Shown in pieces: positions 964-63,775 of a stretch of DNA of 64,000 nucleotides. Numbering within the stretch: position 1 is the stretch's first letter; each line of letters starts with the position of its first letter. The notes below the pieces were generated by a model that worked only from the letters and a program-made list of their open reading frames with translations, made no database searches and was not told where the DNA came from. The position numbers were made by a program, and so were the translations under genes. The stretch comes from an uncultured Planctomycetota bacterium (GTDB lineage Bacteria; Planctomycetota; JACOTG01; JAUIME01): NCBI GenBank assembly GCA_964597885.1, contig CAZQZX010000001.1, forward strand, positions 9,849 to 73,848. Reading direction: 5' to 3'.

Positions 964-1080
964 TCCGGACGCCCTCCGTCGCGGGGCAGGATCTTCCGGC
1001 GCGTTGACCATTCTCCATGCAATGTGGAAGATGGAGCGGTCCGGGACGCACTGACCCCAAGAACCGCAGGAGGGATTGGC

Positions 1081-2214
1081 ATGCAGACACTCCGTGGAAC
1101 GCTCGCGATCTTGCTGACGTTGGGCCTCGCCCTTCCCGTCGCCGCCGGAACCGTTCAGTTCTCGGACGGTGACTTCAACAACGGCGATTGGAACGTGCAG
1201 ACGCTTGTCTCGGGCGGCACCGGGACCGGGAGCTTCGTCCAGCAGTCCTCGGGCGGGAACCCCGATTTCTACCGGCAGCACACGATCGACCTGATCTCGA
1301 ACACGGTCGTCGCGATCGTTGCGGAGTACACGGCGTCGAACTTCGATCCCTCAACGGGCGGCATCGGCGCGATCGACTACTCCGAGGATGCGCGGCTCAC
1401 GTCGGGGAGCGACGAGGGCATGCTCACCTATCCGCTCGTCGTACAGGACGGCGTCAACTACGTCGGGCCGAGCCAGGCGACGCCCGAATCGGGCTGGACG
1501 CCGAAGTCCGCGAACGGGCTGACGTCGGCCGATTTCGGACGGCTCCTCGGGAACCTCAACGTCGACATGAGCGACAACCCGGACTTCGCGCTCGGAGCTT
1601 CCGTCGTGAGCTTCGGCTACGTGCGCCTGGTCGCGGTGGAGGCGGACGCGACGCGGATCGGCGACATCGACAACTGGAGCGTGACCGTGGAAGTCGTCGA
1701 GCCGATCGGAACGTGCGGCGCCGGCCAGATCAACCTGGGTTGCGGCTCGTCGTCGGATGTCCTCTTCGTCAACGGTTCGTCCGGTGGCGTCGATCGCATC
1801 CTCACCGTGTCGACGGGGGATCCGCTCTCGGCGACGATCGCCGAGCCGCCGATCTCGGTCGGCGACGGACGACCGACGGCGGCGTGTGTCTACGTCTGGG
1901 GCGGGGAGCCGCTCGCGAGCGACATCGTGGCGCTTCCGAAGAATCTCGGACCGATGTGCTTCGGACCCTTCATCATCGCGACGCAGGCGCCGGCGCGCAT
2001 CTGGAACGGCATCGGGATCAACCCGAAGCTCGGCACCGACAATGGCCCGGGCGACCCGCCGATCATCGACGGACCCGCGTTCGAGTTCCTGTCGCTGCCG
2101 AACGGCCTCAACCAGACGCTGAACGTGACGTTCCAGGGCATCATCGAAGACCGATGCTCGCAGGGCACGGTGTTTTTCAGCGTGACCAACGGTCTCGTGC
2201 TGCGCATCGAGTAG
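1081..2214 (+). CDS. Secreted protein of unknown function with a conserved C-terminal domain shared with 57051..59258 and 62549..63775
   Basis: The ATG at 1081 gives a signal peptide (MQTLRGTLAILLTLGLALPVAAG). The C-terminal roughly 110 aa (CVYVWGGEP...LPKNLG..CFGP...IWNGIG...QGIIED...SVTNGLVLRIE) aligns with the C-termini of two other secreted proteins in this window. Confidence 0.6.
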   Translation: MQTLRGTLAILLTLGLALPVAAGTVQFSDGDFNNGDWNVQTLVSGGTGTGSFVQQSSGGNPDFYRQHTIDLISNTVVAIVAEYTASNFDPSTGGIGAIDYSEDARLTSGSDEGMLTYPLVVQDGVNYVGPSQATPESGWTPKSANGLTSADFGRLLGNLNVDMSDNPDFALGASVVSFGYVRLVAVEADATRIGDIDNWSVTVEVVEPIGTCGAGQINLGCGSSSDVLFVNGSSGGVDRILTVSTGDPLSATIAEPPISVGDGRPTAACVYVWGGEPLASDIVALPKNLGPMCFGPFIIATQAPARIWNGIGINPKLGTDNGPGDPPIIDGPAFEFLSLPNGLNQTLNVTFQGIIEDRCSQGTVFFSVTNGLVLRIE

Positions 2215-40820: not shown

Positions 40821-40919
40821 CGCTAGCCGCTGGTGGACGCCGCGCCGCGACGATAGAATCCCCTCGGGCTGCGGCCCCTGGAGAATGAGCGGGTACGAAG
40901 CGGATCGGAGTCCGAGGGC

Positions 40920-43067
40920 ATGAGTCGCATCGTGGTCCTGGGCGCCCTGCTGCTGCTGGTCGCCGGGCTTGGGAATTTGTGGAACGCACCGGGCGCTCTC
41001 GCCGTCTCGACCGAGGAGTCGAGCGCGTCGCAAGGTGCGCGAGTCGGAGTGGACGTCGAGCGCGTCTACCCCCGGCTGCGCTTTCAGCGGCCCGTCTTTC
41101 TGACGCACGCGGGGGACGGGAGCGGACGCGTCTTCGTCGTCGAGCAGCACGGCGTCGTGCACGTCGTCCCGGATGCGGAAGATCCCGTCGCGGGCTCCGT
41201 GTTCCTCGATATCTCGGATCGCGTCAGCCGGATCGGAAACGAAGAGGGCCTGATCGGGCTCGCGTTCCATCCGAGATTCGAGGAGAACGGAACGTTCTTC
41301 GTGCACTACTCGTCCTCGGCGAAGGACCGCACGGGAGTGGTCTCGAGATTCCGCGTCGCGAAGGACGATCCGAACCGCGCCGACCCGAAATCCGAAGAGG
41401 TGATCCTCGAGCAGCCTCAACCCTACCGCAACCACAACGGTGGGATGATCGAGTTCGGCCCCGACGGATTCCTTTACATCGCCTTCGGCGACGGCGGGTC
41501 GGCCAACGATCCGAACAACAACGCGCAGAACCTGACGAACTGGCTGGGCACGATCCTGCGTATCGACGTGGATCGCAAGGAAGCCGGCCGGGCGTACGCA
41601 GTGCCGGAGGACAACCCCTTCGTCGGGCGTGAGGACGCGCGTCCGGAGATCTGGGCCTACGGTCTTCGCAACGTGTGGCGATTCTGCTTCGACCCGGAGA
41701 ACGGCGATCTCATCGCGGCCGACGTCGGGCAGGATCGGTTCGAGGAGATCGACCTCATCGAGAAGGGCGGGAATCACGGCTGGCGCGCCTACGAGGGCGA
41801 CCACCGGTTCTTCCGTCGCACGCGGATTCCACCCGAGGAGCACGTGATTCCGATCGCCGAGTACGGCCGCTCGGACGGCATCTCCGTGACGGGCGGGTTC
41901 ATCTACCGCGGATCGCGTCATCCTGCGCTCGCCGGGCGATACTTCTACGGCGATTACGTGTCCGGGAATCTGTGGAGCCTCGAGCGCGATGCGAAGGGCG
42001 AATGGAAGTCGACGCTCGAGCGACGTACCGGCAAGAGCATCGCGTCCTTCGGCATGGACGAGGACGGCGAGATCTATCTGCTGAGCTTCGACGGAGGCGT
42101 GTATCGAATCACGGCGTCGAACGAGCCGGTGGCGGATCCGCTCGCGGGCTGGCCCGAGAAGCTCTCCGAGACGCGGCTCTTCGCCTCGGTCGAAGGCCAC
42201 GTACCGGCCGGGGATCTGATCCCCTACGAAGTGAATGTCGGCTTCTGGTCGGACCGCGCGCAGAAGAAGCGCTACATCCATCTGCCCCGTGGCGGGAAGA
42301 TCGGCTTCCGTGCCGAGGGGCCGTGGGAGCTGCCGGTCGGCGCGACGATCGTGAAGACTTTCATCGGGAACGATTTCGGGCGCGAACGGATCCTCGAGAC
42401 GCGCTTGATCAAGCGAACGGCCGAAGGATGGGAAGCCGCCTCGTACATGTGGGATCGCGATCAGAAGGAAGCGCGGCTGGTTCCGGAAGGATCCCAGTTC
42501 GAGCTGATTCATCGCGGTGGCGTCGACACGTGGCATGTCCCGTCGGTATCCGAGTGCGCCGCGTGTCACACCGACTCGGCGGGCTTCGTGCTCGGCCTGA
42601 CGACGGCGCAGCTCAACCGACCGGGTGCGGAAGGCGGAACCAACCAGCTCGTCGAGTGGTCGGCGCGACGCCTGCTCGATCCCCCGGTCCCCGACGCCTC
42701 GAAGCTTCCGCGGCTGGCGAGTGCGAAGGACGAGAGTCGACCGATCGGGGCGCGTGCGCGCGCGTGGCTCGACGTGAACTGCGCGATGTGCCATCGCCCC
42801 GACGGCCCCGGCAACGCGGCGATCGACCTGCGATACGAGACGTCGATCGCCGACACGGGGACGCTCGACGTGCCGCCCGCCCAGGGCGATCTCGGTCTGC
42901 CGAACGCTCGCATCGTGGCGCCGGGCGCGCCGGGACGATCGGTGCTGGTCGAGAGGGTGCGCACGCTCGGCGCCGGTCGCATGCCGAATCTCGCCTCCAA
43001 CCTGGTCGACAGCGAAGGCGTGGAACTGCTCGAGCGATGGATCGCGACCCTGAAGCGGGACCGATGA
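40920..43067 (+). CDS. PQQ-dependent sugar dehydrogenase (GSDH beta-propeller) fused to a C-terminal di-heme cytochrome c domain
   Basis: Signal peptide. GSDH blocks LAFHPRFEENGTFFVHYS, NHNGGMIEFGPDGFLYIAFGDGG and GLRNVWRFCFDPENGDL. Two CxxCH motifs (CAACH, CAMCH) in the C-terminal roughly 200 aa. Confidence 0.75.
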   Translation: MSRIVVLGALLLLVAGLGNLWNAPGALAVSTEESSASQGARVGVDVERVYPRLRFQRPVFLTHAGDGSGRVFVVEQHGVVHVVPDAEDPVAGSVFLDISDRVSRIGNEEGLIGLAFHPRFEENGTFFVHYSSSAKDRTGVVSRFRVAKDDPNRADPKSEEVILEQPQPYRNHNGGMIEFGPDGFLYIAFGDGGSANDPNNNAQNLTNWLGTILRIDVDRKEAGRAYAVPEDNPFVGREDARPEIWAYGLRNVWRFCFDPENGDLIAADVGQDRFEEIDLIEKGGNHGWRAYEGDHRFFRRTRIPPEEHVIPIAEYGRSDGISVTGGFIYRGSRHPALAGRYFYGDYVSGNLWSLERDAKGEWKSTLERRTGKSIASFGMDEDGEIYLLSFDGGVYRITASNEPVADPLAGWPEKLSETRLFASVEGHVPAGDLIPYEVNVGFWSDRAQKKRYIHLPRGGKIGFRAEGPWELPVGATIVKTFIGNDFGRERILETRLIKRTAEGWEAASYMWDRDQKEARLVPEGSQFELIHRGGVDTWHVPSVSECAACHTDSAGFVLGLTTAQLNRPGAEGGTNQLVEWSARRLLDPPVPDASKLPRLASAKDESRPIGARARAWLDVNCAMCHRPDGPGNAAIDLRYETSIADTGTLDVPPAQGDLGLPNARIVAPGAPGRSVLVERVRTLGAGRMPNLASNLVDSEGVELLERWIATLKRDR

Positions 43068-54959: not shown

Positions 54960-57035
54960 ATGGACTTGAATCGAGAGCAGAGGGCGGCGGCCGAGGCGGA
55001 TCCGAAGGAGCCTCTCCTGATCATCGCCGGCGCCGGAACGGGAAAGACCACCACGCTGGCGCATCGTGTGGCGTGGCTCGTGGCGAGCGGGGCCGACCCG
55101 GGACGGATCCTGCTCCTGACGTTCACGCGGCGTGCGGCGGCCGGGATGACGCGCCGAGCCGAGCACATCGCCGCGCGATCCTACGAAGCGGCGGCGGCCG
55201 TCGCGGGATCCGGTGCCGGCGAAGCCGAGACCCCGGGGGCACGCCCGGCATCTCCGGGACGCATTCGCTGGTCGGGTACGTTCCACGCCATCGCCAATCG
55301 ATTGCTCCGCATGCACGCCGAGAGCGTCGGTCTCGATCCGACGTTTACGGTTCTCGATCGCTCGGATTCCGCGGACCTCATGAATCTCGTGCGTAACGAT
55401 CTCGGGCTTGGCCGCAGCGAGACGCGGTTCCCGCGCAAGGGTACGTGCCTCGCGATCTACTCCCACGCGGTCAACACGCAGCTCCCGCTCGAGAAGACGC
55501 TCGAGACGGAGTACCCGTGGTGCGAGAAGCACGCCGAGGATCTGCGCGGTCTGTTCAAGGCGTACGTCGAGGCCAAGCAGAAGCAGAACGTTCTCGATTA
55601 CGACGATCTGCTGCTGTACTGGTACTACCTGATGGCCGAGCCCGCGCTTGCCGCGCGCGTGCGAGAGCGATTCGACCACGTGCTCGTGGACGAGTACCAG
55701 GACACGAACACGCTGCAGGCGTCCATCCTCCTCGGTCTGTGCCCCGATGGGCAGGGGGTGACGGTCGTGGGCGACGACGCGCAGTCGATCTACTCGTTCC
55801 GTGCCGCGTCCGTTCGCAACATCCTCGACTTCCCCGAGCACTTCGATCCGCCGGCGCGCGTGCAGACGCTCGAGCAGAACTATCGCTCCACGCAGTCGAT
55901 CCTCGATGCCTGCAACGCGGTCATCGAGCAAGCCGACGAACGGTTCACCAAGAACCTTCGTTCGTCGCGGCGCTCGGAGCAGAAGCCGGTGCTCGCTTCG
56001 GTCGCCGATGAGGTCGGCCAGGTCGATCATGTCGTCGAGCAGGTACTGCAACACCGCGAGTCGGGTGTTCCGCTGAAGAAGCAGGCCGTCCTGATGCGCG
56101 CGGCGCACCACTCCGACGCGCTCGAGGTGGAGCTCGCGAGGCGGAACATCCCTTTCGTGAAGTACGGGGGCCTGAAGTTCCTGGAGGCGGCGCACGTGAA
56201 GGACGTGATGTGCGTGCTTCGCTTTGCCGAGAATCCGCGCGATCGGATCGCGGGCTTCCGCATGCTGCAGCTCCTTCCCGGTGTCGGCCCGGCCAACGCG
56301 TCGCGGTGCCTCGACGAGGTGGCCGAGCGCGGGTTCGACGCCGCGGCCGTCGCGCACTTCCGGCCTCCGGCCTCGGCCGCGGCCGACTGGCCGGCGCTCG
56401 TCGAGATGTTGCAATCGCTCGCGGGCGGGGAATGGGGCGGCCAGGTCGGGCTGGTGCGCGAGTGGTACCGACCGCACCTCGAGCGCCTTCACGAGGCGCC
56501 GCACCTGCGGGACAGCGACCTCGAGCAGCTCGAGCACATCTCGGCGCAGTACGCATCGCGCGAGCGCTTCCTGACCGATCTCACGCTCGATCCGCCGAAC
56601 GCGACGGGCGACGAGGCCGGGCCTCCGCATCTCGACGAGGACTGGCTCGTGCTGTCGACGATCCACTCGGCCAAGGGACAGGAATGGGACGTCGTCTACG
56701 TGCTGAACGTGGTCGACGGTTGCATCCCGTCCGACATGTCGACGGGGAACACGGAGCAGATCGAAGAGGAGCGGCGACTGCTCTACGTCGCCATGACAAG
56801 GGCGCGCGATCGGCTCATCCTCGTGCAGCCGCTGCGCTACTACGTGCGACAGCAGTCGCGTCGCGGCGATGCTCATCTGTACGCGCCACGGAGCCGATTC
56901 CTGCCGGACGGCATGCTCGATCGACTCGAGCGCGTTGCCGTCGGTCCCGAAGCTCCGGAAGACGAGGCGGCGCCGACGTCGGCAAAGGTGGATGTAGCGT
57001 CGAGGCTCCGCGGAATGTGGGACGCTTCGCCCTGA
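54960..57035 (+). CDS. UvrD/Rep-family ATP-dependent DNA helicase
   Basis: Walker A is GAGTGKTTTL. Also present are DEYQDTN, the motif II-VI series (QNYRST) and the C-terminal VAMTRARDRL. Confidence 0.85.
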   Translation: MDLNREQRAAAEADPKEPLLIIAGAGTGKTTTLAHRVAWLVASGADPGRILLLTFTRRAAAGMTRRAEHIAARSYEAAAAVAGSGAGEAETPGARPASPGRIRWSGTFHAIANRLLRMHAESVGLDPTFTVLDRSDSADLMNLVRNDLGLGRSETRFPRKGTCLAIYSHAVNTQLPLEKTLETEYPWCEKHAEDLRGLFKAYVEAKQKQNVLDYDDLLLYWYYLMAEPALAARVRERFDHVLVDEYQDTNTLQASILLGLCPDGQGVTVVGDDAQSIYSFRAASVRNILDFPEHFDPPARVQTLEQNYRSTQSILDACNAVIEQADERFTKNLRSSRRSEQKPVLASVADEVGQVDHVVEQVLQHRESGVPLKKQAVLMRAAHHSDALEVELARRNIPFVKYGGLKFLEAAHVKDVMCVLRFAENPRDRIAGFRMLQLLPGVGPANASRCLDEVAERGFDAAAVAHFRPPASAAADWPALVEMLQSLAGGEWGGQVGLVREWYRPHLERLHEAPHLRDSDLEQLEHISAQYASRERFLTDLTLDPPNATGDEAGPPHLDEDWLVLSTIHSAKGQEWDVVYVLNVVDGCIPSDMSTGNTEQIEEERRLLYVAMTRARDRLILVQPLRYYVRQQSRRGDAHLYAPRSRFLPDGMLDRLERVAVGPEAPEDEAAPTSAKVDVASRLRGMWDASP

Positions 57036-57050: not shown

Positions 57051-59258
57051 CTATCCGTCCTTCGGATCGGTGATGTCGAGGACGATCGCGTTGGTGACGC
57101 TGAGGGGAGCGTCCGCCGCCGAGCCGAGATCCTGGATGAAGCCCTGGACGGTGAGCACGACGGGGAAGGGCGCGCCGCCGGGCACGTGGATCGGCATCGA
57201 AGGCGCCGGCCCTGAATCGAAGTCGGGCTCGCCGAGGTTCTTGCGGAAGCCGAGGTTGTTCCAGACCTTCGTCGGCTGGTTCTGCGGGTTCGCGATCAGC
57301 GGGGTCGGAAGCGCCGTCCAGCCGAGACCGCGTGGATAGGGCGTCACGGTCGCGGGGTCCGGGGCCGAGCGCCACACGTAGAGCACGTAGCGCGCCGAGG
57401 CCGGGCCGGCGGGTGGAGCATCGACGTGGATCGAGAACGGCTCGCGCGTGTCGAGGCGGACCACGCGCTCGTGATCGGGGACGCGACCCTCCACGCGGAC
57501 GACATCGGCCAGGTCGGGCGAGGCGTCGTTCACCGTACCGTAGAGTGCGGCGATCTCGATCCGCATCTCGTCGGCGCCGATGTCGACGCGGGCGGTGCCG
57601 TCGCCATCACCCTCGATGCGACGATCATCGCCGTCGATGTCGAAATCGTTGAGCATCGCGCTGTCGTCACCGGCATCGATGCACGGGGAGTCGATGCGCA
57701 GGTGCAGATCGTGGCGGCCGGGCGCGACGAATCGCGGATCGGCTTCGAGGTTTCCGACTCCCGGCCAGTCTCCCTCGACAACGCTCATCGAGACCGTGGC
57801 CGATCCGCCGTGCATGTCGATCTGCGGATCCTGGACACACTCGTTGCCCCAGAAGATCGAGTTCACGACGGTGACGATGGAAGTATCCGCGAAGAGCCCA
57901 CCGCCGGACGTCGTCTCCGGCTCGGGCGCGCGAGCATGGTTGTACGCGATGGTGTTGTTCGCGAGCGTCGCTTCCGTTTGACCGACGTAGACCCCGCCGC
58001 CGTGGCCGCGCCGCGCGTCGTTGAAGGCGATGACGTTTCCGGCAAGGGTGAGGATCGAGTCGAGACAGTGGAGGCCGGCGCCGCTTCCCTGGGCGAGGTT
58101 GTTCTGGATCCGGTTGGCGATGACCTTCACGTCGCACTCGTCGCCTACGAGGATTCCCGCGCCGACGCGAGCTTCGTTGTCTCGGATGAGATTGCCCTGG
58201 ATGCGGGCGCTGCTGCGTTCGTCGCAGGCGATCCCACCGCCGAAGGCGAGGATCTGAACGTGTTCGACGATCTCGTTGTCGAGGAGCTCCGCGTTCGATC
58301 GGCGGCAGTAGATACCGCATCCCGAGAGCGCCGAGTTGCGTTGCAGGAAGTTGCCCTGGATGAGGGAATCGGTGTCGCCGACGAGCGCGATGCCGCCACC
58401 CGTGCCGCTGTTGCGGTTGTTCACGATGGCATTGCCGACGGCAACCAGCGTCGCGCCGTCACCGCAGTAGATGCCGGCTCCGGTTTGCGCGCCGTTGAGC
58501 TCGACGAGGTTCTCTTCGGCCCAGCAGATGGCGTTCGACGTGACGCCGACGCCCCCGCCGATCGCGCTGGCGGGCCCAGCGTGGTTGCTGCGGATGACGT
58601 TCTCGACGAGAAGCGCCGAGGAGCTCGCCGTGATCGCGACCGCTCCGCCGATCGCGCTCGCCTGGTTGTCTTCGAACGTGTTGCGTCGAATCTCGGGCGA
58701 GGAGCCGTCGCAGTACAGGGCGCCCCCCATCGTGGGCATCTGGACGCCGTGCAGGCTTCCGTTCTCTTGGAATCGATTCGAGAGAATGCGCGGGCTCGCG
58801 CCGCGGATGCAGGCGATGCCTCCACCGAATGTCGCGGTGTTGTCGCGGATGACGTTGTCGCGAAGAGTCGGGGAGGCGCCGTCGCACAGAACCGCGCCGC
58901 CGTAGACGGTGTTCACCACGACGGTGCCGGAACCGGCGGTCAGCGTGAAGCCTTCGAGAACGGCTTCCGAGTCTTCGCCGCTCTGGAACACGACGACGCT
59001 TCCGGCGCGACCGGCATCGATGATCGTGGATGCAGGGCCGTGCGAGCTCAGGACGTGGATGGCCTTGCCGAGGAAGTCAATCGATTCGGCGAAGCGGCCG
59101 GGGTTGACCAGGATGATGTCGCCGTCACGGGAGGCCTGAATCGCGGCCTGGATCGTGGCATGGTCGCCGGGAACCGAAAGCGTACCGGCTGCTGCCGTCG
59201 TCGCGAAAGCTGCGACGGTGAGCAGGAGCATGAGTACGAGAACGTTCCGGGCCGACAT
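57051..59258 (-). CDS. Secreted right-handed parallel beta-helix protein (pectate-lyase-like fold) carrying the shared C-terminal domain
   Basis: ATG at 59258 with an AAGGAGA RBS. Signal peptide MSARNVLVLMLLLTVAAFATTAAAG. There are many NxxxxN/IxxNxI beta-helix rungs. The C-terminal roughly 110 aa align with 62549..63775 and 1081..2214. Confidence 0.65.
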   Translation of the reverse strand: MSARNVLVLMLLLTVAAFATTAAAGTLSVPGDHATIQAAIQASRDGDIILVNPGRFAESIDFLGKAIHVLSSHGPASTIIDAGRAGSVVVFQSGEDSEAVLEGFTLTAGSGTVVVNTVYGGAVLCDGASPTLRDNVIRDNTATFGGGIACIRGASPRILSNRFQENGSLHGVQMPTMGGALYCDGSSPEIRRNTFEDNQASAIGGAVAITASSSALLVENVIRSNHAGPASAIGGGVGVTSNAICWAEENLVELNGAQTGAGIYCGDGATLVAVGNAIVNNRNSGTGGGIALVGDTDSLIQGNFLQRNSALSGCGIYCRRSNAELLDNEIVEHVQILAFGGGIACDERSSARIQGNLIRDNEARVGAGILVGDECDVKVIANRIQNNLAQGSGAGLHCLDSILTLAGNVIAFNDARRGHGGGVYVGQTEATLANNTIAYNHARAPEPETTSGGGLFADTSIVTVVNSIFWGNECVQDPQIDMHGGSATVSMSVVEGDWPGVGNLEADPRFVAPGRHDLHLRIDSPCIDAGDDSAMLNDFDIDGDDRRIEGDGDGTARVDIGADEMRIEIAALYGTVNDASPDLADVVRVEGRVPDHERVVRLDTREPFSIHVDAPPAGPASARYVLYVWRSAPDPATVTPYPRGLGWTALPTPLIANPQNQPTKVWNNLGFRKNLGEPDFDSGPAPSMPIHVPGGAPFPVVLTVQGFIQDLGSAADAPLSVTNAIVLDITDPKDG

Positions 59259-59449
59259 TGCGGGTCTCCTTGTTGTGACCTCCCGTTTGTCGCTACCCCG
59301 AAGAATCGGGGTCCCCCAGTCTCTTCTCGGAGAGACGGACGTCGGCTGAAGCGGGTTTCTCCGATCGGTGCGGTTTTTTGTCTCGGGGAAGGCAGAGCGC
59401 GACCTCGTGCGAGGGTTTCCGACCGAGGCAGGGAGGGGAGGCTCGTGCT

Positions 59450-59941
59450 CTAGTCGAGCACCGTGTCCCAGTTCGAGGGAGGACGGTATCCGCGGTAGGC
59501 GAGGTGCCGATCGGGCGTCAGGACGACGAGGGCGGGGATGCCGGCGAGGTACAGGTTGTTGACCAGCGCGAGGTCCGAATCCCGGAGCAGGGGAACGTCG
59601 AGCTTCCAGTCGGAGGCGGCCTTGCGAATTCGGTCCGCGGAGATGGCATTCGACGGGCCCGGGGTGATGCCGAGGATTCGGACGCGATCGCGGAACGGTT
59701 CGACCGAGGTGCGAAGGTCGCCGGCGAGCGCTTCGCTGGTGGGGCTCGACGGGCTGAAGAAGAACAGCGCGATCGTCTCGCCCTGATCGAGGTGGCGCGC
59801 TCCGAGGTCGTATTCCTGATCGTCGAGATCCTGAACGGCGAGCGAGAACGGGAGGCGCGCCGGATCGTCGCCGCTCCCGGGCGTCGAGCAGGAGACCGCG
59901 AGGAGGACGCACACCATCAAGAGGACCGGAGTCCTCGCCAT
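59450..59941 (-). CDS. Thioredoxin-fold (TlpA/redoxin-like) lipoprotein with the CxxC motif replaced by SxxS
   Basis: ATG at 59941 gives MARTPVLLMVCVLLAVSC, a lipobox. The thioredoxin-like layout has SPSSPTS (ALFFFSPSSPTS) where TlpA proteins have WCGPC. Confidence 0.45.
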   Translation of the reverse strand: MARTPVLLMVCVLLAVSCSTPGSGDDPARLPFSLAVQDLDDQEYDLGARHLDQGETIALFFFSPSSPTSEALAGDLRTSVEPFRDRVRILGITPGPSNAISADRIRKAASDWKLDVPLLRDSDLALVNNLYLAGIPALVVLTPDRHLAYRGYRPPSNWDTVLD

Positions 59942-60040
59942 CGATCGCCAGTCGTTCGTCAGGATCATCGTTGTTCCCTCGGGCCCGCTTGAAGGCGACA
60001 GCGTACTAGCTGCGCCGGCCGGCGGCGAGCAGGGCCGATC

Positions 60041-61915
60041 CTAGAACGTCGCGATCCAGCGCACCCCGATCAGGTCGACGCTGTCCAGATCGTCGGGCAT
60101 GGTCCAGTGCTCGTGGTTCAGGACGAGCGAGCTGCCGAACGGAAGCGCGAATCGAAAGCCCCACGTAACGCGCCGGACCCCGAAGCTCGGGTCGGTCAGC
60201 GAGCTGCCGGCGGGGACGATGTCGCCGTCGTTTCGGATCGCGTCCCAGCGGGCGATCAGGGAGATGCCGGGATCTTCGATGAGCAGGAGATCTCCCTCGA
60301 TGGAGTATCCCTCGACATCCGTGTTGCCTCGGGGATTCCCGTCCGCGAAGGTGAACTGATCGTTGGAGCGCTTCGCCCACTCGGCCTGGACGCGCACACG
60401 GTTCCGATATCGCGCCGTGAGATCGACGCCGATGATGTCGTAGTTGAGGCGCTTCTCGAACTCGTCGTCGTCCATGCGTCCGGAGATGAGCGAGGCGCCG
60501 GCGCGCAGATAGGGCGTCCCGAAGGTGACGCGGCCTCCGACGGAGGGATCCGAGTTGTTGTCGTTGTAGTCGCGGCTCTCGAAGAAGTTGACGTCGGTCA
60601 CGCCCTGGAGGCCGTTGACCACGTACGCATCGAACGTCGCGTTGACGTCCGCCACGAGCGGCAGCGCGAACGTGGCGAGGACACCCTCGTCCGAGTACGG
60701 CATCGGGATGACCGCCGGTCCGATGTCGTCGCGGTTGACGCCCTGTCCCATGTTGTAGATCAGCGGCATCGTCACCGTGCGGGAGGCCGCCGGATGGGCC
60801 TGCGCGCCGAGGCCGCCGAACGGCACGAGGAAACGGCCTGCGTCGACGGCGGCCTGCGGGCCGTCTTCGTTGAGATCGAGGGCGCGGTCGATATCGAATC
60901 GGAAGGCCCCTTCGACCAGCTCCAGCCGATCGCCCTCGGGCTCGTTCGAGCGGTGGCACGTGTAGCACGCGGTGATCCGAGCCGTGAAGGGGCCGGTGGC
61001 GTGCCATTCGGCGCCGATCCAGAGCTCGGTTTGAAAGCCGTCGTTCTGAACGGCGTCATCGCGTGCGCTCTGGCGGAAGGTCGTCCCGAAGGTCGCGCTC
61101 ACGTCGAGGTTGTCGATGAACGAGCGGAGCTCCGACTTGATGTCTTCGCCGAGTCCGAGGTCCCCCTCCTTGCGATCCAGCGATGTCAGGTACACCGCGA
61201 TCGGTTCGAGCTCGCGTGACGGGATGTGGGCGCCGGACTTGGAAGCCATGCGTCGGACCGTCGTTCGCCACCCGGCAAGATCCTTCGTCTTGTCGAGGGA
61301 CCTCGCGGCGTCGTGGCACTGCAGGCAGTAGTCGTTGAAGGCTCCCTCGCCGCGATCGATGAGATCGGGATCGAGCTCCTCGAGCTCCGCGATGTCGGGG
61401 AGGTCGTCGAGCGCCTCGGCGTCGTCCGAGTCCGCGTGCTCTCGGTCGGCGCGACGGAGCGAGTCGGCGGGTGCCGGGGCGCCGGCGCGGATCCAGGCGA
61501 GGACCGTGGCCGACTCGGCCGCGTTCAGCAGCCGAGACATGCCGTCGCGTACGGCCCGCGCGTCGGGCATCTCGCCGTCGCGGATGACGAGGTAGAGCTC
61601 CGATTGCTCCGGCGTCTCGAGATCCACGAAGTCACTGTCCCGCAGGCGATCGAAATCGAGGATGAAGTTCAGCTCGCCGCGGTAGCGCACACCGGCGAAC
61701 GCGTTCGACTCCTTGGTGTGGCAGGCCGCGCAGTGATCGAGGAACAGCGTGTGTACGGCGGCAGCCAGGCGGGACGTCGACGTCGTATCGCCGTCGCGCT
61801 GATCTTGGTCGGTGTTCGAGGCCTCTGCGCTTGTGAGGAGAAGTCCGAAGAGCCACAGGCCGACCAGGATCGACCGCACGGCCACGCCGGAACGCGGAGG
61901 CCTCGCGCCGATCAT
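60041..61915 (-). CDS. Tri-heme c-type cytochrome fused to a C-terminal beta-barrel-like (outer-membrane-type) domain
   Basis: Signal peptide, then three CxxCH motifs (CAACH, CLQCH, CYTCH) in the N-terminal half. The C-terminal roughly 300 aa have alternating hydrophobic beta-strand periodicity and a terminal aromatic residue (IGVRWIATF). Confidence 0.6.
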   Translation of the reverse strand: MIGARPPRSGVAVRSILVGLWLFGLLLTSAEASNTDQDQRDGDTTSTSRLAAAVHTLFLDHCAACHTKESNAFAGVRYRGELNFILDFDRLRDSDFVDLETPEQSELYLVIRDGEMPDARAVRDGMSRLLNAAESATVLAWIRAGAPAPADSLRRADREHADSDDAEALDDLPDIAELEELDPDLIDRGEGAFNDYCLQCHDAARSLDKTKDLAGWRTTVRRMASKSGAHIPSRELEPIAVYLTSLDRKEGDLGLGEDIKSELRSFIDNLDVSATFGTTFRQSARDDAVQNDGFQTELWIGAEWHATGPFTARITACYTCHRSNEPEGDRLELVEGAFRFDIDRALDLNEDGPQAAVDAGRFLVPFGGLGAQAHPAASRTVTMPLIYNMGQGVNRDDIGPAVIPMPYSDEGVLATFALPLVADVNATFDAYVVNGLQGVTDVNFFESRDYNDNNSDPSVGGRVTFGTPYLRAGASLISGRMDDDEFEKRLNYDIIGVDLTARYRNRVRVQAEWAKRSNDQFTFADGNPRGNTDVEGYSIEGDLLLIEDPGISLIARWDAIRNDGDIVPAGSSLTDPSFGVRRVTWGFRFALPFGSSLVLNHEHWTMPDDLDSVDLIGVRWIATF

Positions 61916-62448
61916 CGTTCTTCCTCCTCTTCGACCATGTCGCGGTACTTCAGGTGTCCCGCTCTCTCGAGCTCGCGCATCCGGTCGAAGTGCTTCTGCG
62001 CGGATTCGGTATCGCCTTCGAGGACGGCCATCTCGAGGTCGAGCAGCGCGCGGATCGTCTCGATCAGAACCTTGCGGTAGCCGACGAGGAAGGCCGGACG
62101 CTCCGCCTCGGGGACGACCTCGAGCGCCGACGGGCTGTAACGCTTCGACACGACGAGCGCTTCCTGGATCGTGGTGATGAGCGCGAGGTTGGCTTCCTTC
62201 TTCGAGTCATCCGCGATCTGACGTCGCAGCCTTCGCACGGCGCGGTTGACGCGCACCATCGAGTCCATCAACACGTCGGGCTCGACTTCGCTTTCGGTCA
62301 CCTCTTCTTGCGCCGGGGCGCTCGTGCGCGGCGAGCTCGCGACGACGGGCTCGAGCGCCGCCCAGCCGACCAGTGCGATCAGGCTCAGCATCACGAGCGC
62401 GGTCCAGGGGGCGGAAAGGAGGGCGAAGGTCTTCGTTCGGGGGTTCAT
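61912..62448 (-). CDS. Cytochrome b562-family four-helix-bundle protein
   Basis: The stop overlaps the downstream cytochrome c start (ATGA). The C-terminus AGHLKYR resembles the E. coli cytochrome b562 His-ligand region (HQKYR). The N-terminal signal-like helix has Met candidates (VLMDSMVRV). Confidence 0.5.
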   Translation of the reverse strand: MNPRTKTFALLSAPWTALVMLSLIALVGWAALEPVVASSPRTSAPAQEEVTESEVEPDVLMDSMVRVNRAVRRLRRQIADDSKKEANLALITTIQEALVVSKRYSPSALEVVPEAERPAFLVGYRKVLIETIRALLDLEMAVLEGDTESAQKHFDRMRELERAGHLKYRDMVEEEEER

Positions 62449-62548
62449 CGCGGGGAGTCTCCTGAGTTTCGATGGAAGAAGGCGCCGCCCCGGTCGTCGC
62501 CGGGGCGGCGCGTGGATCGTTTGCAGAGGGCAGCGCGCGGCCGTCGAC

Positions 62549-63775
62549 TCACTGCACGCGCAGGATGATGGCGTTCGTCACGCTTGCGGGCCCGTCGGCC
62601 GCCGAGCCGTCGTCGAGAAGGATCGCCTGCAGCGTCGCGGTGACTGCGTTCGGCGCTCCGGCGGGAGCGTTCAGCACCACGGAAGGCGCCGGAGTCGACG
62701 GGAAGTCGGGGTTACCGAGCTGCTGCTGGCGGCCGATGTTGTTCCAGATCTTGAACGGCTGCGGGTTGCCGCCGGTCGGCGGGATCGGGAAGCAGAACAG
62801 CCCGAGGTTTCGCGGAAGCGTCACGACCGGCGTCTGCGGGACGGGCTCTCCGATGTGCAGGTACATCACGAACGGTCCGGGGCTCGGCCCTCCGGGCGAG
62901 GCCTGCATCGAGACCGAGATCGGCGCTCCCGTCGCGAGGTTGACCACGCCGTTGCCGTTCCCGGTCGACCCGTTCAGGGTCAGGACGTCCACCGCGTTGC
63001 CGTTGCCGGCGTTGACCCGGCTGCGCCGGCACGCGAGGAAGTCCTCCTCGCGGGTGAATTCGATGGTGAGCGTCGGTCGGTTGGCCGGCGTTCCCGATTC
63101 GCGGCTATCGAGTCGCTTGGCGGTACGCTGCTGGGACTCGTCGGTGACGAGGATCCAGCCGGCGTTCACGTTCGGGTTGTCGACCCACCGCTGGACATCC
63201 GAGATGAGGGCCGCGGTCGAGCTCACCGTGTACGAGCCCGGTCCCGAGATGGCGACGGTACCGGAGGCTTCCGAAACGAAGTCGCCGCCGGCCGCGTTCC
63301 ACGTCGTGTCGGAGAAGAACCGGTGGATCCACGTGGCGTCGTTCGTGCGCGAAGAGGCTCCGGCCCCCTCGCCGCGACCCGCATTGGACGTGCCCTCGCC
63401 CCAGCTCCCGAGTACGCGATGCACGCCGACGGTGCGGGAGGAGCCGTTCGCGACGTTGTTGCAGTTCACCGACAGGGTCACCGAGTCGATGCGGGCGCGG
63501 TCGGGCAGCGAGGTCACGTCGAAGAAGAGCAGCGCGCGGCGCTTGTTGCCGCTCGACTGCCCGGTGGTGCCCACGAAGACGTGGTTGCCCGCGCCGTTGC
63601 TCAGGTTTCCACTCGTGTCCTCGTACAGCGTGTTGTCCCGGGACGCGATGATCGTGGCCGTATCGGCTGCGGCGTTCGCCTGGAACAGAAGCGTCCCGAG
63701 GACACCCAAGGCGAGCAAGGTCAGGGGCAAGTGGGACCGGATCGAACGATCGGAACGAAGGTTGGAACGCACCAT
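62549..63775 (-). CDS. Secreted DNRLRE-like domain protein carrying the shared C-terminal domain
   Basis: Signal peptide MVRSNLRSDRSIRSHLPLTLLALGVLGTLLFQANAAA. The N-terminal region has a DNRLRE-like ASRDNTLYED motif. The C-terminal roughly 110 aa (FVMYLHIGEP...LPRNLGLFCFP...IWNNIG...SVTNAIILRVQ) are shared with 57051..59258 and 1081..2214. Confidence 0.6.
   Translation of the reverse strand: MVRSNLRSDRSIRSHLPLTLLALGVLGTLLFQANAAADTATIIASRDNTLYEDTSGNLSNGAGNHVFVGTTGQSSGNKRRALLFFDVTSLPDRARIDSVTLSVNCNNVANGSSRTVGVHRVLGSWGEGTSNAGRGEGAGASSRTNDATWIHRFFSDTTWNAAGGDFVSEASGTVAISGPGSYTVSSTAALISDVQRWVDNPNVNAGWILVTDESQQRTAKRLDSRESGTPANRPTLTIEFTREEDFLACRRSRVNAGNGNAVDVLTLNGSTGNGNGVVNLATGAPISVSMQASPGGPSPGPFVMYLHIGEPVPQTPVVTLPRNLGLFCFPIPPTGGNPQPFKIWNNIGRQQQLGNPDFPSTPAPSVVLNAPAGAPNAVTATLQAILLDDGSAADGPASVTNAIILRVQ

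Follow-up and report, generated by a model that had tools for sequence, protein, structure and literature searches.

A run of five genes in a planctomycete contig

Five consecutive open reading frames (ORFs) on the minus strand fill positions 57051 to 63775 of a 64,000 nt stretch of contig CAZQZX010000001.1 (assembly GCA_964597885.1, positions 9,849 to 73,848), from an uncultured Planctomycetota bacterium. The whole of this 64-kb stretch is referred to as the window, and coordinates are those of the window unless another locus is named. The subject of this analysis is the third of the five, gene C, which is predicted to encode cytochrome c domains and an outer membrane porin-type barrel in a single polypeptide, with a further heme attachment motif inside the barrel domain itself. 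We read its product as an electron conduit across the outer membrane, and put the probability of this reading at roughly 0.55. The five genes had been described in a sequence-only reading of the window; the ORFs and domain types given there were confirmed and all coordinates match with small corrections, although the start of gene E and the reading of the active site position in gene D had to be amended. The genes are as follows.

Gene A, 62549..63775, minus strand: 408 aa, secreted protein with a DNRLRE/CBM96-like domain
Gene B, 61912..62448, minus strand: 178 aa, exported protein with four predicted helices, cytochrome b562-like
Gene C, 60041..61915, minus strand: 624 aa, predicted tri-heme fused cytochrome-porin
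Gene D, 59450..59968, minus strand: 172 aa, thioredoxin-fold lipoprotein without redox cysteines
Gene E, 57051..59258, minus strand: secreted right-handed beta-helix protein with NosD-like repeats

Downstream, the run is bordered by a convergent UvrD-like helicase gene (54960..57035), whilst the upstream border is a divergent protein kinase gene, seen in near-identical metagenomic contigs (L084).

Protein C is predicted to join cytochrome domains to a heme-bearing barrel

Three CxxCH motifs are found in protein C, at residues 62, 197 and 317. Read from the N terminus, the polypeptide consists of a signal peptide, a class I-like heme domain, a cbb3-type heme domain, a linker and a 16-strand barrel containing the third motif, the structural assignments being taken from an AlphaFold2 model built on 39 homologues.

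Signal peptide, residues 1-33, 61817..61915, minus strand: ends ...LLLTSAEA with cleavage before S; prediction read by eye from the sequence
Heme domain 1, residues 44-150, 61466..61786, minus strand: monoheme, CAACH at 61718..61732, weak matches to Pfam Cytochrom_C and PSCyt1
Heme domain 2, residues 183-251, 61163..61369, minus strand: cbb3-type class I cytochrome c, CLQCH at 61313..61327, followed by a variable linker
Barrel, residues 270-624 (355 residues), 60044..61108, minus strand: 16-stranded porin type with a terminal Phe
Heme site 3, C317-Y-T-C320-H321, 60953..60967, minus strand: end of modelled barrel strand 3 (residues 310-318) and start of loop L2
M389, 60749..60751, minus strand: L3-like loop, motif PL.Y.MG; invariant in 27/27 superfamily sequences

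The second heme domain matches Pfam Cytochrome_CBB3 with 29.2 bits, above the gathering threshold of 27, and its C197, C200, H201 and M223 are invariant in the 39 aligned homologues, M223 being the probable sixth ligand of the heme on the evidence of the alignment. The first is modelled with a low to moderate predicted local distance difference test (pLDDT) score, and in the same alignment is confined to the closest relatives of C, which form a tri-heme subclade.

The model as a whole has a mean pLDDT of 79, mostly exceeding 90 over residues 270-624, and contains 16 beta strands. When compared with the PDB using Foldseek, the best match was the chitoporin VhChiP (E value 1.5e-11), followed by OmpT, OmpC/OmpF, OprP (2o4v) and Omp32. 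C shares with these porins a C-terminal Phe, an extended third loop and, as modelled, 16 strands; however, it differs from them in having a CxxCH motif in the barrel and in that no curated porin model reaches threshold, there being no match to a porin family at E <= 0.1 in a scan of Pfam and NCBIfam that included Porin_1, Porin_4 and Porin_O_P. A sequence search of the PDB with C likewise returned nothing useful. To our knowledge, no general diffusion porin carries covalent heme. It had been proposed from the sequence that the C-terminal half of the cytochrome is an outer membrane-type beta barrel fused to the heme domain; the model and the porin matches bear this out, the alternative of a soluble domain fails, and the fusion is conserved in a large family. 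What had not been foreseen is that the third heme site, as modelled, lies inside the barrel domain rather than in a heme domain of its own.

Six short turns of the modelled barrel (306-309, 420-424, 467-469, 504-506, 547-550 and 592-594) lie on the same side as both termini, so by canonical porin topology loop L2, with heme site 3, is likely to be extracellular. As R313, T315 and C317 occupy alternating positions along a single face of their strand, C317 would face the barrel lumen. A 44-residue loop between strands 5 and 6 (364-407) corresponds to the porin constriction loop L3, and is the most conserved stretch of the protein, containing the motifs PFG, PL.Y.MG and P.P.xD.G.

A large family of predicted heme-bearing barrels

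Relatives of C are numerous. A word-indexed search identified 69, several of them labelled Pirellulales, Gemmataceae or Planctomycetales, whilst scanning species-representative genomes gave 79 loci, nearly all in Planctomycetota metagenome-assembled genomes (MAGs), plus Pontiella (Kiritimatiellota) and Sedimentisphaerales, with weak matches in Anaeromyxobacter and Eisenbacteria. Using a profile of the barrel only against 1.84 billion representatives, 398 clusters (at 50% identity) were recovered at E <= 1e-3, with 105 at E <= 1e-30.

These proteins fall into two tiers. Members of the strong tier have two, three, four or five CxxCH motifs, through the possession of one to four tandem N-terminal cytochrome domains; the core of the family has two, and the tri-heme form is limited to the closest relatives of C. 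P0119, P0127 and P0142 are members with four or five motifs, having extra tandem cytochrome domains N-terminal to the heme-bearing barrel. The weaker tier (E values between 1e-40 and 1e-20) is composed of proteins of 360-470 aa that have a signal peptide and the barrel alone, in which a single CxxCH motif, within the sequence C.GCHG[LF]E, aligns with site 3. The named barrel-only members are all labelled hypothetical and come from Myxococcota or Planctomycetota MAGs. In neither tier is the barrel covered by a Pfam or NCBIfam model, the barrel-only relatives having sub-threshold matches to Porin_O_P and Porin_4, and literature searches found no account of a porin with an internal CxxCH motif or of this family.

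C317, C320 and H321 are invariant in 39/39 aligned family members and, together with M389, in all 27 of a set of sequences spanning the fused and barrel-only forms. M389 is probably the sixth ligand of the barrel heme, judging from this conservation in both tiers, whereas the nearby M405 is kept in the fused tier only. Other residues invariant in the 27 sequences are G360, G367, P384, L385, G390, P406, G435, N454, R462, G479, R516, R582 and G586. With the heme motifs and so many barrel residues unchanged across dozens of homologues, these features of C are, at the level of sequence, not attributable to chance.

The two parts of the architecture can also be found as separate genes. In locus L091 (6900..9239), from a Planctomycetes MAG, a gene for a 333-aa cytochrome matching Big_2 and PSCyt1 lies directly 5' of one encoding a 412-aa barrel-only, single-heme member; this pair is an unfused version of the cytochrome and barrel arrangement. 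Family members are also carried by the MAGs OFTM264 (L008) and OFTM151 (L054), whose isolate prefix is that of MAGs from the Oslofjord subsea tunnel. The OFTM MAGs were reconstructed from iron- and manganese-oxidising biofilms of this tunnel, in the study of which a FeGenie call of Cyc2 was made in a Bythopirellula MAG (PMC10732223).

Genes surrounding the cytochrome-porin

Conservation of the genes around C was assessed at 83 loci containing C homologues, with flanks of up to 8-10 kb. One neighbour recurs. Gene A has a clear match to the NCBIfam model DNRLRE_dom (NF033679; E value 1.9e-19; score 70.3 bits, cut-off 34), the domain extending over approximately residues 59-239, with a DNTLYE motif at 47-52 and a lineage-specific C-terminal domain of around 150 aa; it has no CxxCH motif. 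CBM96, with which this domain can be compared, is an alginate-binding module (PMC9971899), but gene A differs in lacking a polysaccharide lyase or any other catalytic domain. Using tblastn, relatives of gene A with 34-45% identity were found beside C homologues in 23 of the 83 loci. With an iterated DNRLRE profile, the domain was found within 3 kb of the C homologue at 11 of the 44 loci having at least 3 kb of sequence on both flanks. Matches to the profile are concentrated close to the cytochrome-porin, with 20 lying within 2 kb versus three at distances of 2-8 kb (Fisher p = 3e-8, a value that overstates the independence of loci which are phylogenetically related).

The orientation of the DNRLRE gene varies by clade, being divergent, tandem or convergent, and differs between Pirellulaceae, Planctomycetaceae and Gemmataceae. 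The domain always forms the N-terminal part of a secreted multidomain surface protein, the remainder of which varies (Ig-like, GEVED, Calx-beta and DUF11 domains, often with a terminal dockerin). Several of these orthologues also match Pfam CBM96, and none of the DNRLRE neighbours examined contains a CxxCH motif. In our assessment gene A belongs with C loosely but really, and the DNRLRE surface protein probably works at the same cell surface site. We know of no prior description of a genomic link between this domain and a heme-porin.

The remaining genes do not share this association. When tblastn was used at a threshold of 1e-3, no relative of B, D or E was detected within 8 kb at any of the 83 loci, apart from a match to the C-terminal domain of E in locus L001. 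The two closest homologues of C (57% and 53% identity, the closest relatives ranging from 46 to 57%) have neighbours unrelated to the genes of the window. Conservation of the five genes as a module is not supported by these loci, in which the DNRLRE protein alone recurs.

Gene B matches Pfam Cytochrom_B562 (PF07361) with an E value of 1.8e-5, scoring 25.8 bits where the gathering threshold is 30. This match extends over residues 60-169 of the protein and positions 2-102 of the profile hidden Markov model, such that M64 (62257..62259) and H165 (61954..61956, in the context AGHLKYR) fall, as candidate heme ligands, on the Met7 and His102 ligand positions of cytochrome b562, the context of His102 in the Escherichia coli protein being AYHQKYR. 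Like b562, B is exported and has a helical domain of around 106 residues with Met and His at the axial ligand positions. A single-sequence AlphaFold2 model has four long helices, at a pLDDT of 64. B differs in being sub-threshold for Pfam and in lacking any detectable relative elsewhere. A homologue search of 5.8 billion proteins returned only its own 99%-identity, species-level cluster, phmmer at an E value of 10 gave no match among all ORFs of the related loci, no b562-like ORF is present upstream of the C homologue in the two closest cases or in L005, and a sequence search of the PDB found nothing useful. We regard B as a lineage-specific addition.

Gene D has a lipobox-like LAVSC sequence and matches Pfam Thioredoxin_8 with 24 bits, below the cut-off of 27. 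It had been considered a TlpA-like lipoprotein with SxxS in place of CxxC; the lipoprotein-type signal and the loss of the redox site hold, the protein having no Cys outside its signal peptide and thereby differing from the TlpA/ResA-type oxidoreductases, but the active site position reads S-S-P-T and the fold match is sub-threshold. Gene E matches Pfam Beta_helix (E value 2.4e-31, 108.9 bits) and NosD (E value 8.5e-13). Its identification as NosD itself was rejected, as the score against NCBIfam TIGR04247 (NosD_copper_fam) is 52.8 bits, far below the cut-off of 300, and the generic Beta_helix repeat model alone passes. On sequence grounds the start of E is probably the ATG at 59258, behind AAGGAG, rather than the long-ORF start at 59912.

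A and E have in common a C-terminal domain of approximately 150 aa (37% identity, E value 5e-33). A third copy ends an unlinked 396-aa protein encoded at 1024..2214 on the plus strand, which has no Pfam match (E values of 1e-18 and 3e-13 against the A and E domains, respectively), and the L001 match to the C-terminal domain of E is to an FG-GAP protein. With these copies elsewhere, the domain marks a class of secreted proteins and not this cluster. Nor is it a recognised sorting signal, as a search with it gave only four short matches without annotation, so that it is rare in public data. It may be a lineage-specific module for surface anchoring or sorting, although the anchoring role is a guess made by likeness to the dockerin ends of the gene A orthologues.

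The stop codon of B and the start codon of C overlap by 4 nt as ATGA, just 3' of a GAGGAGG sequence resembling a ribosome binding site, making it probable that the two are co-translated. The spacers between C and D and between D and E are 72 nt and 191 nt long, respectively. Between A and B there is one further feature.

Hairpin, 62482..62511, minus strand: in the A-B spacer; perfect 12-bp GC stem GCGCCGCCCCGG/CCGGGGCGGCGC with a 6-nt loop, then CUUCUUCC

This hairpin is kept in both the minimum free energy and centroid structures of the folded spacer RNA, though the spacer as a whole is not significantly more stable than shuffled sequences (z = -1.4). It may act as a terminator or attenuator of the gene A transcript. 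It was not found by a consensus terminator scan, which detected no intrinsic terminators in any spacer of the cluster, and a signal scan of the spacers identified no sigma-70-like promoters.

On this evidence it is unlikely that the five genes constitute one co-transcribed functional module, in which A and E would be surface components, B a periplasmic b562, C the conduit and D an accessory protein. Such an arrangement would accord with the common strand of the genes between divergent and convergent neighbours, the B/C overlap, the 72-nt C-D spacer, the lack of a canonical terminator, the recurrence of A-type proteins beside C homologues and the C-terminal domain that A and E share. However, relatives of B, D and E are near C at none of the 83 loci, those of its nearest relatives included; B has no detectable homologue beyond its species-level cluster; a GC-rich hairpin lies 3' of A; the D-E spacer is 191 nt and E has its own ribosome binding site; and the shared domain is also present in the 1024..2214 gene and in the FG-GAP protein of L001. 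Of the electron conduit module with associated surface proteins that was originally envisaged, the fused heme-barrel protein and a recurring A-type neighbour are supported, whilst relatives of B, D and E were not found at the homologous loci. For D and E, mere adjacency to C is the most likely explanation, position being the sole link, and the object of interest is gene C and its family rather than the five-gene cluster.

Other genes recur beside the cytochrome-porins. A gene for a BBP7-family planctomycete porin lies immediately 3' in nine loci, often with a 4-nt gap or overlap (for example L029 9311..10972, Pfam E value 4.5e-111), and TPR and Amt-histidine kinase genes are found in nine to ten loci each. 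Most of the other recurring neighbour clusters were discarded, as they consisted of shadow ORFs antisense to C or to the DNRLRE gene. Within the window, the only other real ORF bearing CxxCH motifs lies approximately 17 kb from C, at 40857..43064 on the plus strand; its product matches glucose/sorbosone dehydrogenase (E value 5.5e-48) and has two C-terminal CxxCH motifs, such that it probably combines a sugar dehydrogenase with a diheme cytochrome c in one chain.

A proposed electron conduit in a single polypeptide

The reading of C to which we gave a probability of about 0.55 is that of a single-polypeptide outer membrane cytochrome-porin, which conducts electrons across the outer membrane. 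Following Sec export, heme would be attached at the CxxCH sites, and the C-terminal 355 residues would insert in the outer membrane as a 16-stranded barrel. One heme, bound to C317 and C320, would then sit inside the pore at the outer end of strand 3, with H321 and M389 of the inward-folding L3-type loop as its axial ligands. On the periplasmic side, the flexible low-complexity linker would tether the cbb3-type class I domain, with ligands H201 and M223, and in the lineage of the window the extra monoheme domain would be tethered as well. Electrons could be exchanged by the pore heme with the tethered hemes, and by these with soluble carriers, of which the b562-like protein B is a possible example here. 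The direction might be either that of Cyc2, with Fe(II) or some other reductant being oxidised outside the cell, or that of electron export. Cyc2 and Cyc572 are the outer membrane Fe(II) oxidases of Acidithiobacillus, Zetaproteobacteria and Gallionellaceae. From the loading of the hemes and the identity of their ligands to the placement of site 3 in the lumen and at the extracellular side, and electron transfer itself, we infer each element of this scheme.

Hemes with six-coordinate His/Met ligation are better suited to electron transfer than to catalysis. We favour electron transfer as the function because the probable Met ligands are invariant, because the tandem cytochrome domains vary in number and because the cytochrome and barrel also occur as an unfused pair. 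Several observations weigh against this. No respiratory genes, such as those for oxidases or other periplasmic cytochromes, are consistently adjacent to C homologues in the loci examined; the DNRLRE neighbour, which lacks a redox motif, accompanies C homologues at only around one locus in four; the match of B to cytochrome b562 is sub-threshold, with nothing found by Foldseek for B at E <= 1e-3; and the MAGs carrying the family come from soil, lake, groundwater, peat and marine samples, not specifically from iron-rich habitats, with most carriers other than the two OFTM MAGs originating in ordinary soils and waters.

The barrel heme might instead form a catalytic or sensing site, for instance one that handles peroxide or nitric oxide on the outside of the cell, or serve an ordinary nutrient porin as a structural plug. 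The lack of consistently adjacent respiratory partners would fit such a role, as would the frequent occurrence nearby of carbohydrate-binding-type surface proteins and, in nine loci, of the BBP7 porin; furthermore, in locus L001 (3542..9610), which contains the closest homologue (57%), two genes lie within a few kb, one for a 774-aa CCP_MauG-type protein and a divergent one for an Fe/Mn superoxide dismutase. However, that oxidative context was found in L001 only, the invariant M389 and M223 predict six-coordinate His/Met hemes, and one to four tandem tethered cytochrome domains look like an electron relay. We consider such a role to be improbable.

Comparison with Cyc2 and known outer membrane electron conduits

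The fusion of heme and barrel in one polypeptide had been presented as a departure from known systems, but it is not unprecedented, Cyc2 being an earlier case. Cyc2 is a 16-strand porin with one N-terminal heme and the diagnostic motif PxFAR[Q/K][T/Y], which oxidises Fe(II) (PMC8406198). The two have in common a signal peptide, a c-type heme motif and a 16-strand OprP/PhoE-like porin in a single chain, as predicted for C from its sequence and model. They differ in the location of the heme, as the single CxxCH motif of Cyc2 comes directly after the signal peptide, the heme histidine of the Acidithiobacillus ferrooxidans protein being residue 16 of the mature form (bioRxiv 10.1101/2021.03.22.436458), whereas the site in the C family comes after three barrel strands. 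They also differ in the number of hemes, the fused forms of C having at least two CxxCH motifs by virtue of their tethered class I domains, and in their taxonomic distribution, as the C family is mainly found in Planctomycetota, Kiritimatiellota and Myxococcota.

The Cyc2 motif, searched for as a regular expression, is absent from 39/39 aligned members of the C family and from all listed representatives of at least 330 aa. As a control, metagenome contigs were scanned with the back-translated motif, which yielded 109 ORFs containing it; 73 of these are complete, encoding proteins of 395-580 aa with one CxxCH directly after the signal peptide, around 10 residues past the cleavage site. In the recovered Cyc2 ORFs (L092-L211), three residues separate the [T/Y] of the motif from the first heme Cys, as in FARQTGMACEACH; the motif has been described as lying five amino acids upstream of CXXCH (PMC8406198). 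When the barrel profile of the C family (A2) was aligned with that of 15 diverse Cyc2 sequences (A3) using hhalign, a match with a probability of 66% and an E value of 5.6e-5 was obtained, covering only 147 columns, all from the C-terminal halves of the two barrels, and leaving the heme regions unaligned. The two scaffolds may share a remote porin ancestry.

It is very unlikely that C belongs to the Cyc2 family as a divergent member, and by extension is an outer membrane Fe(II) oxidase: the overall design of an OprP/PhoE-like 16-strand porin (Foldseek; PMC8406198; PMC10654088), the profile match and the prefix that the OFTM264 and OFTM151 carriers share with MAGs from iron- and manganese-oxidising biofilms (PMC10732223) would all be in keeping with membership, but the signature motif that was found in 109 control ORFs is missing from the C family members examined, the heme site follows three barrel strands and is accompanied by one or more further cytochrome domains, and the profile match is weak and partial, being restricted to the C-terminal half with the heme sites unaligned. 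C is similar to Cyc2 in its predicted design, but by its motif and heme site it appears to lie outside the Cyc2 family.

The porin-cytochrome systems MtrAB, MtoAB, PioAB and those of Geobacter resemble C in the concept of hemes held in an outer membrane barrel to link periplasm and cell surface, sometimes with a dedicated surface partner. However, C is more distant from them than from Cyc2; they are built from separate polypeptides, with a 26-strand MtrB around a wire of 8-10 hemes, whereas proteins of the C family are fused and are predicted to have 16 strands and 2-5 hemes. C has no MtrB_PioB-type Pfam match, and no multiheme gene with 8-10 CxxCH motifs is present in the window.

Implications for planctomycete surface biology

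By sequence, the C family appears to be a second kind of fused cytochrome-porin beside Cyc2, with its heme site elsewhere, which was previously undescribed in the literature searched. We would go further only tentatively, and at somewhat less than even odds, in proposing that heme-in-barrel porins form a second, independently evolved class, defined by a lumen heme with His321/Met389 ligation from L2 and L3 and wired, in Planctomycetota and Kiritimatiellota, to between one and four tethered cytochrome domains as a complete wire across the outer membrane.

Known outer membrane electron conduits are mostly from Proteobacteria and Desulfobacterota, and Cyc2 is the gene product by which neutrophilic iron oxidation is recognised in genomes. 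The whole of the present class, which comprises hundreds of clusters, is covered by no Pfam or NCBIfam model and does not have the Cyc2 motif used for recognition in Cyc2 studies, could escape surveys of extracellular electron transfer. If the proposal is true, largely heterotrophic, polysaccharide-degrading phyla would have an unrecognised route of extracellular electron exchange, with possible uses in the oxidation or reduction of metals, or in providing electrons to the adjacent CBM96-like surface proteins. The recurring pairing with such proteins hints at a link between carbohydrate binding at the surface and redox chemistry; whether it reflects a shared surface complex or a supply of electrons to polysaccharide chemistry at the cell surface is speculation. 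The core members of the family would also represent a minimal, two-heme system in which to study electron transfer through a porin. Even if these proteins are not conduits, a covalent heme within the lumen of a porin would be a new kind of outer membrane hemoprotein.

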